64,000 nucleotides of DNA, from contig CANQSF010000011.1 of assembly GCA_947626345.1 (NCBI GenBank), positions 3,050 through 67,049 on the forward strand, read 5' to 3'. The notes below the pieces were generated by a model, which was not told the DNA's origin, searched no databases, and was given only the letters and a program-made list of their open reading frames with translations. A program made the translations under genes and the position numbers. Within the stretch, counting starts at the first letter, position 1, and each line of letters begins with the position of its first letter. Source of the stretch: an uncultured Oscillospiraceae bacterium. Lineage in GTDB: Bacteria; Bacillota; Clostridia; Oscillospirales; Oscillospiraceae. Positions 40,440 to 45,957 of the stretch are shown here, piece by piece.

Positions 40440-40793
40440 ATGGCACGTATCAAGGGCGCGATGATGACGCGCAAGAGAAGAAATAAGATCCTCGGCATGG
40501 CCAAGGGTTATTGGGGCAGCAAGTCCCGTCACTATAAGATGGCCAACCAGGCCGTGATGAAGAGCCTGCGTTACGCCTATGTGGGCCGCAAGCAGCGCAA
40601 GCGCGATTTCCGCCAGCTGTGGATCGCACGTATCAGCGCCGCCTGCAAGCTGAACGGCATCAACTACTCCCAGTTCATGCACGGCCTGAAGCTGGCCGGG
40701 ATCAACATGAACCGGAAGATGCTCTCCGAGACCGCGATCAACGATCCCGCCGCGTTCACCGCTCTGGTGGCGAAGGCGAAGGCCTCTCTCTGA
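40440..40793 (+). CDS. rplT: 50S ribosomal protein L20
   Basis: [29 protein letters not shown].., 117 aa. Confidence 0.95.
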
Positions 40794-40806
40794 CCCATAC
40801 CGAAAA

Positions 40807-40834
40807 AAGCCCGGAGTGCTCTCCGGGCTTTTTC
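40807..40834 (+). terminator. Rho-independent terminator
   Basis: Stem AAGCCCGGAG/CTCCGGGCTT with a TGCT loop and T5. Confidence 0.85.
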
Positions 40835-40947
40835 ATTTCATAAATTAGGACCACGACCGCTCCTGGCGCAAAGCCTGGGGCGGTTTTTTGTATAAGCGGC
40901 CCGGTCGCGGGGCCAGAATACACCGAAGATATATGGAGGGGCGCGAG

Positions 40948-41787
40948 ATGATCGAACTGGACGAAAAAGCGATAGCGGGGTTCCGGGAAAAGCTGGCGGA
41001 GGACGAGGCGGCGGGGGCCACGGTGGCCAAGTACACGGTCGCCATCCGCCGCCTGGCGGCATTCTGCGGCGGACAATTGCGGGACAAGGGGCAGTTAGTC
41101 GCCTTTAAGCAAGCCCTGGCGGCCTCCGGCATGGCCCCGGGCACCGTGAACGGGGTGCTGACGGCGGTGAATAAACTGCTGGATATCTATGGATACCATG
41201 AATGGCGCTTGCGCTTCCTCAAGGTGCAGCGCCGAGTTTTCATGGCTCCGGGGCGGGAGATGACCCGCGCGGAGTATGAAAGGCTGGTGAATACGGCGAA
41301 GCGGCAGGGCGACGAGCGCCTGGCGCTGGCGGTGCAGACATTGGGGGCCACGGGAGCGCGGGTCAGCGAGCTGCAGGCGGTCACGGTGGAGGCCGTGGCG
41401 GCCGGAAAAGCGGAAATTCGCTCCAAAGGAAAGATCAGATTGCTGCTTTTGCCGAAGAAACTCTGCAAACTGCTGGCCAATTACTGCGCGAAACGGAACA
41501 TCACCGCCGGGCCGGTGTTCGTCACCGCGTCGGGAAAGCCTATCGACCGGAGCAACCTCTGGAAGAGCATGAAGCGGCTGGCGAAGCACGCCCGGGTATT
41601 ATTAGATAAGGTATTTCCCCACAACCTGCGGCATTTGTTCGCCCGCACGTATTACAAAAAGACCCGGGACATCGTGCAGCTGGCGGACATCCTGGGCCAC
41701 TGCAGCGTGGAGACCACGCGCATCTACACCGCACGATCGCCCATGGAGCAGCGGCGGCAGATGGACGCGCTGGCGCTTTTGCTATAA
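40948..41787 (+). CDS. Tyrosine recombinase (XerC/D-integrase family), catalytic residues intact
   Basis: 279 aa from MIELDEK with a GGAGGGG RBS. Catalytic residues: Arg in ATGARVSEL, Lys in SKGKIR, HNLRH (H-x-x-R), GHCSVETTRIY (His, Tyr). Confidence 0.85.
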   Translation: MIELDEKAIAGFREKLAEDEAAGATVAKYTVAIRRLAAFCGGQLRDKGQLVAFKQALAASGMAPGTVNGVLTAVNKLLDIYGYHEWRLRFLKVQRRVFMAPGREMTRAEYERLVNTAKRQGDERLALAVQTLGATGARVSELQAVTVEAVAAGKAEIRSKGKIRLLLLPKKLCKLLANYCAKRNITAGPVFVTASGKPIDRSNLWKSMKRLAKHARVLLDKVFPHNLRHLFARTYYKKTRDIVQLADILGHCSVETTRIYTARSPMEQRRQMDALALLL

Positions 41788-41821
41788 AAAAAGATACCAC
41801 AGAATTCACATTCTGTGGTAT
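41786..41821 (-). terminator. Minus-strand-only intrinsic terminator formed by IR-L
   Basis: The minus strand reads ATACCACAGAA-TGTGAA-TTCTGTGGTAT followed by CTTTTTTT. On the plus strand no T tract follows the hairpin. Confidence 0.6.
41796..41819. repeat. Inverted repeat, left copy (IR-L)
   Basis: ACCACAGAATTCACATTCTGTGGT. It matches the reverse complement of 42049-42072 at 22/24. Confidence 0.75.
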
Positions 41822-41864
41822 GTACACGGAAATTACTTCCTCCGAGCCCAGCTTTACGAGGATG

Positions 41865-41893
41865 ATTATAGCCCGCTTCCCTTAAAAAAGCAA
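41865..41893 (-). promoter_or_regulatory. Near-consensus promoter inside the IR-bounded segment, facing away from the surface-protein gene
   Basis: Minus strand TTGCTT (41893-41888), 17 nt spacer, TATAAT (41870-41865). An A/T-rich UP-like tract (GTAAAAAAATAAACTTTTTTTGAA) lies just upstream. Confidence 0.6.
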
Positions 41894-42048
41894 GGGGAAA
41901 TTCAAAAAAAGTTTATTTTTTTACATAACAACTCCGCCTGAGGCCCTTTTGCCCGGCCCCAGGCGCCCTTTCCGTGCGCTTTTCACAGTTTTTTGCCCCC
42001 GTTTTCTCCCTTCCGGCCAAAAACTTGGGCGTCTTCCCCGCCGCACGC

Positions 42049-42072
42049 ACCACAGATTGTGAATTCTATGGT
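42049..42072. repeat. Inverted repeat, right copy (IR-R)
   Basis: ACCACAGATTGTGAATTCTATGGT. Its centre TGTGAA is the reverse complement of the IR-L centre TTCACA. Confidence 0.75.
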
Positions 42073-42115
42073 GAGAAGGGCTCGAAAAACTATTTTATTA
42101 GGAGGACATCAAACA

Positions 42116-44998
42116 ATGACAAAACGTGTACTCAGCTTGCTCTTGGCGCTGATCATGGCTCTGTCTCTGTGCGTCCCGGCCTTCGCGGCTGACGAGCCTG
42201 AAGTCATCGAAGAAGAGCCTGCTACCATCGAGGCTGAGGGCGAAGAGGCCGCGCCTGTGGCGGCCGATGAGCCGGAGGCGATCGCTGTCGATGAGCCTGA
42301 GGTCGTCGACCTGCTCAACGAAGATTCCCTGCAGGGCATGGTCAACCAGGCCAACGGCATGAAGGCCGGCATCATTGCCGGTTGGTATCAGAAGGGTACT
42401 GACGCTGACTGGCCTTCTGGCGTCACGACCGATGAACAGCTCATGACCTACTTCCTGGATCAGCTGGAAGCGTCTGAGAAAATCCTGGGCGAGATCAAGG
42501 ACAAGGGCGGCTATGACACCTGGCTGCTCAGCGGTGGGACTCGCGACCGGTATGAAAATGCTATGAAGGGCCTGGCTGCTGCCATCAGAGCGGTGACGAA
42601 GTATGTCCGCGAAGATACCTACAGGAAGCAGATCAGCGAGATGAACGGCTGGATCAAGTGGTACCAGTACGTCATCAATGAGAACAAGACCGCGTCCTAT
42701 GGCAAGGACACTTGCGATGTCCAGCCCTGGTTCGAGACCGAGGTGAAGGAGGCTGTGGCCTTCCTGCGGTCCCTGGCCGGCTATAACGAGGACTATGACG
42801 AGCTGTGGCTGCCTGGCGCTGCGTCCATCCTGTACAAGGACTATCTGGCTGCTAAGGCTACCTTCACCAAGCTGTACGGTGAGTTCGATGATGCGATCCT
42901 CGCCGAGTATACCGACTACGTGGAGCTGCGGGACGCCATCCGCGACGCCAAGGCCAAGCTGGCCAGCGACGGCTACTTCGACGGTGCGACTTATTTCTGG
43001 CCGACGAAGGTCGACGGTTGGTGCGATTCTCTCAGCGCGTTCCTGGACTTCCTGCTCAGGGATATAGCTACTGGCGCTGGCACGACCGGCTTCAAGGACG
43101 CTAACCAGACGCTGAAGAGTGTCCACTATTACCTGACTGTGATCAAGGCTTTCCTGAAGGAGAACAAGCACACCCTGAGCCTCAGTCAGTTCTACATCAA
43201 CACCGACTTCAAGAGCGTTTCTGTGCGTGTCGTGCAGTCTAGCGGTGACAAGTATAAGAGCGATAACCGTTATTATCACCTGGAAGTCAGCGCTGTCAAG
43301 ACTGTAAAGGGCCATCCCTTCACCGCTGCTGAGTTGGCGGATTGGCGTGAAGAAGATATAGGCCTGGGCGGCAATACTAAGAATGGTATTTTTGAAATGG
43401 ACGTCAGCCCCGATCAGCTTGGCATCAAGGATGACCAGGGCAAGCTGAAGGACGGCGCCGTCATCACCGTGAAGTTTATCTGCGACAAGGGCCACGAGGT
43501 CCTCGCCACAAAGACTATCACCGTTGATCAGAGCTACAACGGCCCCGTGATCGTCGATTCCGAGTACGATCCCGACGACATCGTCATCAAGCTGGACAAG
43601 AGCTTGGCTGCTGCTTCCCAGGCGCACACTACGGATCCTGACAACAACCAGTACAGCCAGGCTACCCTGACCCTGAGCTACAACGGCACCGTCGTGGAGA
43701 CCAAGACGATCAATGCCAACAATGACCTTTGGAAGAACGTGTTCAAGTTCAACCTGACCGACCTGTGGCACATGGAGATCGGTGAGTACACCGTCGAGTT
43801 GAAGGTCACCCAGGGCCAGCCCAGCGGCGGCGACCATAGCACCATCTCCCGCGGCACCGTGACGGTCACCGTCCCCGACATCACCGCCTATCAGGGCGAC
43901 GAGGTCGAGGCTGACGAGGACGACGTTTGGGGTCTGGCCGGCGCCAAGGGCTTCAACAACCTGCAGAAGGCCATCAGCCTGGCCAACTCTGACGACAAGT
44001 ACGCCAAGAGCGGCGACACCGCGAAGCTGAAGGCGCAGCTGGCTGCCAACGTGGCCGAGGCCCAGGCTTTCGTGGACAAGGCCGCCACCACCCCCCTCTC
44101 CAAGGCCAACAAGGCCAAGGTCGACGAGCTGATCGCCGCCATCTACGGCATCCTGAAGAATTTCGACGTGGCTGCTGACACCTCCGCGCTGACCGCTGCC
44201 ATCGCCGCCGGCGAGGCTCTGGTCCCCTCCGACTATGACGGCGCCAACGCTTGGAAGACCCTGCAGGACGCCATCACCGCCGGCAAGGACCTGATGAAGA
44301 AGGCCCCCATGGCTGCTACCGCTGCCAACAAGGCTGCCATCGCCGCCGCCGCTGAGGCCATCGAGGACGCTATCGATGATCTGAACGAGCATCATGCTGT
44401 GGTGCCTTACAACGAGCTGAAGGCCCTGGAAGAGCTGATCGACTCCGTTCCCACCCGTCTGGCCGCTGACGACTTCTCCGCTGCGAGCAAGGCTGCTGTC
44501 AATGCCGCCGTTGCCGCCGCGAAGCCTCTGCTGGACAAGACTGGCGTGACCAAGTCCGAGCTGCAGGCCGCCATCGACGCGGTGCAGGCTGCCCTGAACA
44601 ACCTGACCACCGTGAAGAGTGACGCTGCCCCCACGGCTCCCTCCGCCGATTACACCGGCTGGGCCACCGCTGAGAATGGCGACTACTACTACTTCAAGAA
44701 CGGCTCCCTGGTCAAGGCTGACTGGGTCAAGTCCAAGGGTCTGTGGTACCACATGGGCGCCACCGGCAAGATGGACACCGGCTTCATCCACATCGTGGAT
44801 AGCTGGGGCGACGCCTACTACTACCTGAACCCCAGCAACACCAAGGGCACCATGGGCCGCATGTTCACTGGCTGGAAGATGATCAACGATTCCTCCGCCG
44901 GCGCTTGGGGCTGGTTCGAGACCCGTAACAACGGCCATCAGGGCCAGTGCACCTACACCACCAACTGGGGCGACTTCAAGAACTACAAGCCCTTCTAA
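42116..44998 (+). CDS. Large secreted surface protein with C-terminal cell-wall-binding (CW_binding_1-type) repeats
   Basis: Start MTKRVLSLLLALIMALSLCVPAFA|AD (signal peptide) with an AGGAGG RBS. 960 aa. It has Ala-rich FIVAR-like helical modules (..TSALTAAIAAGEALVPSDYDGANAWKTLQDAI..). C-terminal GW/YYY repeats are present (GWATAENGDYYYFKNGSLVKADW.., GDAYYYLNP..GRMFTGWKMI). Confidence 0.85.
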   Translation: MTKRVLSLLLALIMALSLCVPAFAADEPEVIEEEPATIEAEGEEAAPVAADEPEAIAVDEPEVVDLLNEDSLQGMVNQANGMKAGIIAGWYQKGTDADWPSGVTTDEQLMTYFLDQLEASEKILGEIKDKGGYDTWLLSGGTRDRYENAMKGLAAAIRAVTKYVREDTYRKQISEMNGWIKWYQYVINENKTASYGKDTCDVQPWFETEVKEAVAFLRSLAGYNEDYDELWLPGAASILYKDYLAAKATFTKLYGEFDDAILAEYTDYVELRDAIRDAKAKLASDGYFDGATYFWPTKVDGWCDSLSAFLDFLLRDIATGAGTTGFKDANQTLKSVHYYLTVIKAFLKENKHTLSLSQFYINTDFKSVSVRVVQSSGDKYKSDNRYYHLEVSAVKTVKGHPFTAAELADWREEDIGLGGNTKNGIFEMDVSPDQLGIKDDQGKLKDGAVITVKFICDKGHEVLATKTITVDQSYNGPVIVDSEYDPDDIVIKLDKSLAAASQAHTTDPDNNQYSQATLTLSYNGTVVETKTINANNDLWKNVFKFNLTDLWHMEIGEYTVELKVTQGQPSGGDHSTISRGTVTVTVPDITAYQGDEVEADEDDVWGLAGAKGFNNLQKAISLANSDDKYAKSGDTAKLKAQLAANVAEAQAFVDKAATTPLSKANKAKVDELIAAIYGILKNFDVAADTSALTAAIAAGEALVPSDYDGANAWKTLQDAITAGKDLMKKAPMAATAANKAAIAAAAEAIEDAIDDLNEHHAVVPYNELKALEELIDSVPTRLAADDFSAASKAAVNAAVAAAKPLLDKTGVTKSELQAAIDAVQAALNNLTTVKSDAAPTAPSADYTGWATAENGDYYYFKNGSLVKADWVKSKGLWYHMGATGKMDTGFIHIVDSWGDAYYYLNPSNTKGTMGRMFTGWKMINDSSAGAWGWFETRNNGHQGQCTYTTNWGDFKNYKPF

Positions 44999-45069: not shown

Positions 45070-45912
45070 GTGGATACGCTGGAACTGAGGCCGAGACAGC
45101 AGACGCGCGCCCGTGACGCCGGCGTCGCCATGACCGAGGCGGACAGCGAGCGCTTCCTCGCGGACCTGGCGGTCAAAGGCCGCGCGCCCGAGACTGTGGA
45201 GCGGTATCGCCGCAGTTTGGAGCACCTGGCCGAGGTCCTGCCCGAGGACCGGAAGATCAGGCGCGGCACGCTGGAACAGTGCCGCGAGGCGCTGCTGGCC
45301 GCGGGCTATGCGCCCCGGACGGTGAATCTGGTGCTGTCCGTGGCGAATACATACGTGGCGTATATGGGCCATCGGGAGTATCAGCTGGGCGACACGCTGG
45401 AGACTGAGGCGAAGCTGCATCCCGAGCTGACGCGGTCCGAATACCGGCATCTCCTTCAAGTCGCGAAGCTGCTGGGGCGGGAGAAGGTCTACCTGCTCGT
45501 CAAGCTCTTCGCCAGCGCCGACATGCCCGTCCAGGAGCTGGATAAGGTCACCGTCGAGGCCGTGACCGCCGGGCAGGTGACGGTGGGCGAGGGCAATTCC
45601 CGCCGCAATATCCGCCTGCCGGGCTGTGTGCGGAAGGAGCTGCTGGCCTTCGCCGAGCGGCAGGGCATCTATCGCGGGCCGCTGTTTTTGACGAAGGACG
45701 GCACGCCTATGAGCCGCACGTACGTGACCAGCGCCATCCGCAACCTCTGCGCGGTGGCGAAGGTGCCGGTGGAGAAGGGCAATCCCCGCTGCCTCCGGCG
45801 GCTGTATCTTTCTGGCCGCAAGGCCATCGAGGACAACATCGCGCTCCTTGTGGAGCAAGCCCTCGAGCGCCAGCTGGACGAGGAACAGCTCACCGTCGGC
45901 TGGGACGTGTGA
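45070..45912 (+). CDS. Tyrosine-recombinase-like paralog lacking catalytic residues
   Basis: 280 aa. GTG start with a GGGGGG RBS; an alternative ATG lies at 45130. It aligns with the 40948 recombinase (ELTRSEYRHLLQVAK vs EMTRAEYERLVNTAK; VTVEAVTAGQVTV vs VTVEAVAAGKAEI). However, box I is ASADMPVQEL (Arg lost), box II is PRCLRRL (both His lost), and no C-terminal His/Tyr segment is present. Confidence 0.7.
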   Translation: MDTLELRPRQQTRARDAGVAMTEADSERFLADLAVKGRAPETVERYRRSLEHLAEVLPEDRKIRRGTLEQCREALLAAGYAPRTVNLVLSVANTYVAYMGHREYQLGDTLETEAKLHPELTRSEYRHLLQVAKLLGREKVYLLVKLFASADMPVQELDKVTVEAVTAGQVTVGEGNSRRNIRLPGCVRKELLAFAERQGIYRGPLFLTKDGTPMSRTYVTSAIRNLCAVAKVPVEKGNPRCLRRLYLSGRKAIEDNIALLVEQALERQLDEEQLTVGWDV

Positions 45913-45924
45913 GGCTGCGGGCAA

Positions 45925-45957
45925 TAAAAAACACCGCCGTTGGGCGGTGTTTTTTTG
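45925..45957. terminator. Bidirectional terminator
   Basis: A6, then ACACCGCC-GTTG-GGCGGTGT, then T6. It lies between the recombinase-like gene (+) and etfA (-). Confidence 0.85.

Follow-up and report, generated by a model that had tools for sequence, protein, structure and literature searches.

What controls a large surface-protein gene when the short interval that separates it from the upstream gene carries a promoter pointing the wrong way? This question is raised by a locus in an uncultured Oscillospiraceae bacterium, contained in 64,000 nucleotides of contig CANQSF010000011.1 (referred to here as the window, with all positions counted from its first letter), in which a gene for a tyrosine recombinase is followed by about 300 bp of intergenic DNA and then by a gene for a 960-amino-acid secreted protein. 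An original prediction on this DNA had described the interval as a candidate invertible promoter, currently OFF. The evidence presented below indicates that the locus is very probably an invertible promoter of the fimS type, OFF as sequenced, that switches the surface-protein gene, and the segment bearing the promoter was recovered from public assemblies in both orientations.

The segment is bounded by two inverted repeats, IR-L and IR-R (Table 1). The predicted pair of 24-bp repeats, matching at 22/24 and lying 229 bp apart, was reproduced in both coordinates and score, with 92% complementarity between the arms and 229 nt between them. No second inverted pair matching at 22/24 or better at 50-600 bp spacing was found anywhere in the 64-kb window, and 2000 shuffles of the intergenic region gave a best score of no more than 19/24. 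The site motif occurs at only two places in the 64-kb window, IR-L and IR-R, where the chance expectation is 0. Both arms are 9-6-9 near-palindromes in which two 9-bp half-sites surround an asymmetric 6-bp centre, a layout that, as read from the DNA, matches a tyrosine-recombinase core site, with putative binding half-sites flanking an asymmetric crossover region. The 6-bp cores of IR-L and IR-R lie in opposite orientation, in agreement with the earlier statement that the asymmetric centres TTCACA and TGTGAA fix the relative orientation of the arms.

The key expectation for such an element is that the segment should be present in both orientations, and this was borne out in public assemblies. 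An exact-sequence look-up of the window recombinase gave no match; the comparison set consists of public metagenome contigs encoding near-identical recombinases, which were reached by homology search and are given L numbers here. On L001 (recombinase 98% identical), the segment is oriented as in the window. On L002, which derives from the same species and chromosomal locus (glgB-ssb-infC-rplT context) and carries a recombinase 95% identical, the segment is inverted, its interior matching the window at 225/229 positions as reverse complement, as compared to 108/249 on the same strand. L012 is likewise inverted relative to L004-L006 (226/230 as reverse complement, 98%), all of these contigs belonging to one lineage with recombinases 96% identical and a shared pyruvate-kinase context. 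L012 was also the single true relative returned by a scan of species-representative genomes, and the closest named record is a metagenome-assembled genome (MAG) from rabbit gut. In both flipped copies, L002 and L012, the promoter faces the surface-protein gene and lies where inversion had been predicted to put it, at about 41975-42003 in window numbering and roughly 105 nt before the open reading frame.

The arms themselves carry a record of the exchange. They mismatch at positions 5 and 16. At position 5 the left site of L002 agrees with IR-L of the window and at position 16 it has the base derived from IR-R, with the converse in the right site. In both L002 and L012 the outer half-sites are fixed and the inner half-sites travel with the segment. 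This reassortment of the arm mismatches places strand exchange in the stretch from position 5 to position 16, within which the core lies. Across lineages, the core varies jointly in both arms, being TTCACA in the window, TTTACA in L007-11, TACACA in L014-17 and TACGCA in L021. Tyrosine recombinases need core homology between the sites that they pair, and the joint change of the core in both arms fits this requirement. The two orientations can be told apart by their junction sequences, for example TTCACATTCTGTGGTATGTACACGG versus TTCACAATCTGTGGTGCGTGCGGCG. In total, both orientations were seen in at least four independent lineages, with the flipped copies nearly undiverged. In the close clade 17 promoters face the recombinase and 5 face away. 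Among the more distant loci, L053 carries the same promoter as L054/55/57 in the opposite orientation, and L060 the same as L044, in each case in samples that differ.

Within the segment, the promoter was assessed by a looser scan together with conservation across lineages. The minus-strand promoter of the original prediction stood as to its position and its -10 element, TATAAT, which matches consensus at 6/6 positions; "near-consensus" was too generous for the -35 element, TTGCTT, which matches TTGACA at 3/6. No candidate other than TTGCTT-17-TATAAT has a proper -10 element on either strand in 41700-42115, which is in line with the claim that no comparable plus-strand promoter precedes the ATG at 42116. 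The -35 and -10 elements, the upstream A/T tract, the early leader, the fixed leader and the ribosome-binding site do not vary among six lineages whose recombinases are 58-100% identical, the two hexamers staying unchanged even where the recombinases are only 58-76% identical, and the promoter-distal ~100 bp of the segment diverges freely between lineages. The promoter is presumably active. As had also been proposed, the IR-L hairpin with its T7 is a predicted terminator in the minus direction: an intrinsic terminator is called here on the minus strand, and the fold is a perfect 12-bp stem with U7 after it. IR-R forms a mismatched stem and lacks a U-tract, so that ON transcripts should pass through it.

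The presumed invertase is the Xer-like recombinase encoded immediately upstream. Its gene was rightly described as intact and adjoining IR-L, with all catalytic residues present (R138, K160, H225, R228, H251 and Y260, the Arg-Lys-His-Arg-His-Tyr set, invariant in 42 family sequences); the stop codon leaves 8 nt before IR-L. Purifying selection has clearly acted on the recombinase as well as on the sites and their matching cores, and in about 80 loci the recombinase gene is coupled to switches of this kind. The protein falls under every NCBIfam equivalog cutoff, those of Xer and FimB/E types included, and its best solved structural relatives are archaeal XerA-like proteins and XerD. From its sequence and position, this adjacent recombinase is the putative catalyst of inversion at IR-L and IR-R.

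In the mechanism proposed here, the adjacent recombinase would bind and pair the 24-bp sites, and exchange inside the core would flip the 229-bp segment. In the OFF state, a sigma-A-type promoter near one end of the segment would fire toward the recombinase gene, and the IR-L hairpin with its U7 would stop the RNA after about 70 nt, leaving the surface-protein gene without a promoter. In the ON state, the flipped promoter would lie on the plus strand at ~41975-42003 and would read through IR-R, giving an mRNA with a ~106-nt leader followed by the 960-residue secreted protein. Read-through of a weak hairpin after this gene would probably also express the next gene, P3, which encodes a catalytically dead paralogue of the recombinase. 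Within a clone, inversion would be frequent and reversible and expression bimodal.

Several observations weigh against this reading. A standard promoter scan made no call at TTGCTT-17-TATAAT or elsewhere on either strand, a miss that is explained by the 3/6 match of the -35 element. Promoter activity is a prediction from sequence and frequent switching a presumption, and the assemblies give one majority orientation per sample, so that the variation seen is between populations and not within a clone. There is no plus-strand terminator for recombinase transcripts before the switch, so that some OFF-state read-through into the surface gene is possible. The read-through that would thereby enter the switch also bears on a cwpV-type arrangement, in which the promoter would lie outside the segment (recombinase read-through, or a site in the 3' end of the recombinase gene) and orientation would act through the structure or termination of the leader RNA. 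Such an arrangement has a precedent in the Clostridia in cwpV itself (PMC2784873), and it could make use of a conserved GC-rich palindrome and other GC-rich hairpins in the promoter-distal half of the segment. Against it, the scan of 41700-41795 showed no promoter-like site before IR-L, the OFF-oriented segment contains no called terminator on the plus strand, and the tail of the palindrome is not U-rich on either strand. The best-conserved part of the segment is instead the -35/17 nt/-10 unit with its UP tract, which recurs family-wide, and we regard a cwpV-type mechanism as improbable here.

The orientation data could also reflect an inversion that is real and no longer works as an active phase switch, either as rare polymorphisms fixed in strains or with a recombinase that now has another role. 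The differences were seen between samples only, one orientation prevails in most assemblies (17 to 5 toward the recombinase in the close clade), and the loss of a recognisable IR-L in L018-L020 shows that switches can become fixed. This explanation is nevertheless quite improbable in view of the occurrence of both orientations in four or more independent lineages with flipped copies that have barely diverged, of the purifying selection on recombinase, sites and matching cores, and of two paralogous loci in one sample that share strain-specific single-nucleotide polymorphisms (SNPs) and are in opposite states. A reading without any switching, in which the repeats are the terminal inverted repeats of a miniature inverted-repeat transposable element (MITE) or just a pair of palindromic terminators, would account for each arm being a hairpin-forming palindrome and for IR-L scoring as a terminator. 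The single copy in the 64-kb window, the constant position of the segment relative to the recombinase in differing chromosomal contexts, the match of the asymmetric cores in inverted orientation and the natural inversion observed reduce its probability to a negligible level.

An invertible promoter with an adjacent recombinase most closely recalls fimS of Escherichia coli, a ~300-bp promoter-bearing segment with inverted repeats and adjacent tyrosine recombinases that controls a surface structure (PMC2784873, PMC5903667). As with fimS and FimB/FimE, the promoter in the window lies inside a short intergenic segment next to a recombinase gene, and the target is a surface protein. The recombinase is Xer-like and outside the FimB and FimE families (NF007370 and NF007371: 19.9 and 16.2 bits, with cutoffs of 221 and 222), 24-bp palindromic sites of the 9-6-9 form replace the 9-bp repeats of fimS, one active recombinase and a dead paralogue stand in place of two active enzymes, and the host is a Gram-positive-type Oscillospiraceae bacterium, unlike E. 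coli. The original prediction had drawn the parallel to cwpV and RecV of Clostridioides difficile, where the promoter lies outside a 195-bp segment, the OFF state comes from an intrinsic terminator that forms in the cwpV leader, and recV encodes a distant master recombinase unlinked to the switch (PMC2784873, PMC5903667). The biological likeness holds: a Clostridia host, imperfect repeats of ~21-24 bp around ~200 bp as in cwpV/Cdi1 (PMC2784873, PMC5903667), a tyrosine recombinase, a position just upstream of a large strain-variable surface-protein gene, and a mostly OFF state. The mechanistic likeness does not, as the three defining features differ: the promoter is inside the segment, with only 8 nt between the recombinase stop codon and IR-L; the sole terminator from IR-L to the ATG is on the minus strand and acts on the outward-facing OFF transcript, with no plus-strand call; and the recombinase gene abuts the switch here and is adjacent in every locus examined.

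Table 1. Features of the switch locus and its flanks (positions in the window)
Feature	Position	Strand	Description
Hairpin and T-run upstream of recombinase gene	40861..40889	+	Terminator-like call
Tyrosine recombinase gene (presumed invertase)	40948..41787	+	Xer-like, 279 aa; PF00589, 86 bits
IR-L as intrinsic terminator	IR-L + T7 (41786-41792)	-	Called for minus-strand transcripts
IR-L recombination site	41796..41819	.	Half-site ACCACAGAA, core TTCACA, half-site TTCTGTGGT
Invertible segment	41820..42048	.	229 bp; promoter pointing away from surface-protein gene (OFF) as sequenced
Promoter	41865..41893	-	-35 TTGCTT (41893-41888), 17-nt spacer, -10 TATAAT (41870-41865)
A/T-rich UP-like tract	41898..41926	-	Upstream of -35; A-run and T-run kept in six lineages
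GC-rich palindrome	41935..41965	.	Promoter-distal half of segment
IR-R recombination site	42049..42072	.	ACCACAGAT, core TGTGAA, TTCTATGGT; no T-run after
Fixed leader part	42073..42115	+	Ribosome-binding site AGGAGG (42100-42105); nearly invariant across lineages
Switched gene, 960-aa secreted protein	42116..44998	+	Signal peptide, hypervariable middle, FIVAR-like region, C-terminal choline-binding-like repeats
Hairpin with weak T tail between surface gene and P3	45020..45046	+	Read from sequence
P3, catalytically dead recombinase paralogue	45070..45912	+	280 aa; same transcription direction as switched gene
Strong terminator closing operon	45932..45956	+	Terminator call; faces convergent ETF genes

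The layout of the window recurs well beyond its own species. Homology searches returned thousands of relatives of the recombinase. At loci with recombinases 58-62% identical, the order of recombinase, ~300-350 bp gap and a gene for a 1000-1400-residue protein with the same signal peptide is kept in unrelated chromosomal contexts. A metagenome scan added 80 further loci, mostly from human gut, with recombinases 43-54% identical, and about 60 of these carry a segment of 130-380 bp flanked by inverted repeats at or just after the recombinase stop codon, with half-sites of the ACNACAKAAT type around a 6-bp spacer. A promoter could be clearly called in 44 loci; its spacer is 17 nt in 43 of them and 18 in L100, its off-centre placement recurs, and the -10 element lies a median of 39 nt from the arm that it faces, with 33 promoters directed at the recombinase and 11 away from it. 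Related loci drive glycosyltransferase and capsule operons. By this recurrent layout, with both orientations represented, the window element belongs to a widespread class of invertible promoters that lie next to recombinase genes in gut Clostridia. General surveys have reported many predicted invertons in Firmicutes from human metagenomes (PMC11602134). A literature search found no description of this family or of the pseudo-recombinase, and individual loci may figure in PhaseFinder-type surveys; the family is apparently large and undescribed.

Phase-variable surface structures have been much studied in Bacteroides and in pathogens and hardly at all in gut Clostridia such as the Oscillospiraceae, which are abundant and mostly uncultured. 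The features described here amount to a recognition rule, namely a 279-residue Xer-like recombinase whose stop codon is immediately followed by a 9-6-9 site, and a segment of ~200-300 bp in which the promoter sits off centre. With this rule dozens of further switches are recovered from human-gut and other gut metagenomes, their targets being either large secreted proteins of hypervariable sequence or operons for capsule and glycosyltransferases. The rule offers a handle for annotating phase variation in MAGs, helps to explain assembly breaks and strain heterogeneity, and suggests candidate loci for phage receptors or immune evasion. Recombinase-driven invertible promoters are a known type of switch, and the partner gene P3 is the one feature that could make this locus more than another example, being a candidate for a new kind of switch regulator.

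P3 is related to the recombinase at 32% identity (E = 6e-28) and lacks Arg-I, the beta-hairpin Lys, His-II and the whole His-III/Tyr segment. The same catalytic losses are found in all 30 aligned P3 homologues, which have conserved motifs of their own, EKGNPRCLRRLY and EQEQLxxGW. At least 901 homologues exist, named "site-specific integrase" or "hypothetical protein" in Oscillospiraceae and Oscillibacter. An AlphaFold2 model of P3 (predicted local distance difference test score, pLDDT, 84.6) shows the recombinase fold with its two domains, a long terminal helix taking the place of the Tyr-bearing region; among PDB structures it best matches XerA, Tn1549 Int, lambda Int, XerD and Cre. Homology, the 30-sequence alignment and the model thus all describe a recombinase fold minus its active-site residues. 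The same description applies to MrpR (YopR), the master repressor of prophage SPbeta from Bacillus subtilis, a recombinase fold that has lost catalysis and serves as a sequence-specific DNA-binding regulator (PMC10516654). The comparison is one of fold and lost catalysis, and P3, unlike MrpR, lies in a phase-variable operon beside an active paralogue and not in a prophage lysis-lysogeny module.

In the other contexts examined, P3 always directly follows an active recombinase and a ~300-bp intergenic region. A repeat-flanked promoter was detected in this intergenic region in L023, L036, L064 and L102-L106, and none was detected ahead of P3 in L052. Where the contig is long enough, glycosyltransferase or capsule genes usually follow P3 (L036, L052, L064, L102-L105). 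P3 is the last gene of the operon in the window and the first after the switch in the polysaccharide loci; it is a recurrent passenger of the switched operon. Its place downstream of an invertible promoter implies that ON cells would be its main producers. In such cells P3 could bind either the recombinase or the recombinase sites and so bias or lock inversion, an orientation-dependent feedback with a logic comparable to FimE control. Alternatively, P3 could act in trans on sister switches within one genome so that only a single surface locus is ON at a time, a UpxZ-like logic. Direct control by P3 of inversion, or of cross-talk between loci, is a tentative proposal that we consider rather unlikely as it stands; if true, the recombinase/pseudo-recombinase pair would be a switch design not described for invertons.

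In Bacteroides, polysaccharide and outer-surface-protein promoters are inverted by Mpi and tyrosine recombinases, and UpxY and UpxZ are encoded by the first genes of the operons. The systems share gut commensal hosts, several invertible-promoter loci per genome, variable surface structures and a regulator-like first gene. They differ in phylum, recombinases and promoter type, and the first gene in the Clostridia loci encodes a dead recombinase paralogue and not NusG-like UpxY or UpxZ.

The product of the switched gene had been described as a 960-residue cell-wall-binding surface protein. Its length and signal peptide were confirmed, and cell-wall binding is weakly suggested by matches below threshold: the C-terminal GW/YYF repeats fall just under the cutoff for choline-binding repeats (PF01473, 18.9 bits versus 20.5), and PspC-type NCBIfam matches are weak. 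The L002 allele at the same locus (L002 6169-8883) has 46% global identity to the window protein and 20-48% in the middle, as compared to 95-97% for the flanking recombinase and P3 genes, the allelic hypervariability being drawn from this pair of window and L002. The signal peptide and the C-terminal ~180 residues are the conserved parts, and the signal peptide is conserved even in lineages with recombinases 58% identical.

At least two such modules are present in the species. Both the window locus (locus A; L002, ON) and a locus B (L107, OFF) occur in sample ERZ27249325; locus B spans L107 1443-6343 and comprises a PHP gene, a recombinase gene, a switch in the OFF state, a gene for a 940-residue FIVAR protein, P3 and MMPL. 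Loci A and B have near-identical switches with strain-specific SNPs in common, a pattern suggestive of a single genome and of concerted evolution. L003 was considered as an allele of the window locus and rejected, as its PHP ... MMPL context assigns it to the second, paralogous locus; the 28% identity of its surface protein to that of the window is consequently paralogy. Short recombinase contigs were likewise rejected as a sign of mixed orientation, since near-identical paralogous modules break assemblies anyway.

To the left of the module, the recombinase gene is preceded by infC-rpmI-rplT and two hairpin/T-run terminators. A hairpin with a T-run stands 40-70 nt before the recombinase start in every lineage (window, L005, L007, L014, L018), and its retention despite differing upstream genes suggests that the module is transcriptionally insulated on this side; the hairpin nearest the gene in the window probably insulates it from transcription of the rplT operon. 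To the right, the hairpin between the surface gene and P3 was not called as a terminator and is possibly a partial one.

The GC-rich palindrome in the promoter-distal half of the segment keeps ten pairs in five lineages, one of them through a two-sided compensatory change, in surroundings that diverge. A role as terminator was rejected on the basis of tails that are not U-rich on either strand, and its covariation is weak, with one compensatory pair; the palindrome is possibly a read-through barrier or a site for an accessory protein. An Rfam search of 40700-42300 gave only sub-threshold terminator-like matches near 40800 and nothing in the switch or leader, and a known riboswitch or leader RNA was rejected for that reason. 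The predicted terminated OFF RNA of ~70 nt (41794-41864, minus strand) corresponds to the early leader in the ON state. This sequence ranks among the best-conserved stretches of the switch; it includes a small hairpin in which compensatory changes are lineage-specific. CGAGCCC (41843-41849) and GGGCTCG (42078-42084) are copies of a conserved G(G/Y)GC(T/B)CGAA-like motif that flank IR-R in the ON orientation; they are direct repeats when ON and inverted repeats when OFF, and may serve as an RNA element or as a site for an accessory protein.

Two further observations concern more distant relatives. P0144-P0161 are P3 relatives of 447-457 residues, ~51% identical over the length of P3 and some with PF00589 matches, that may be intermediates between the active and dead forms. 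One of them lies on the same 188-kb contig as L018, a locus (L018 5333-5650; also L019 and L020, recombinase 61% identical) in which the promoter faces the gene, IR-R is intact and no IR-L is recognisable within 3 mismatches, and which may represent a locked-ON derivative. The genes upstream in L018 resemble phage tail-fibre genes (Gp58, Peptidase_S74).

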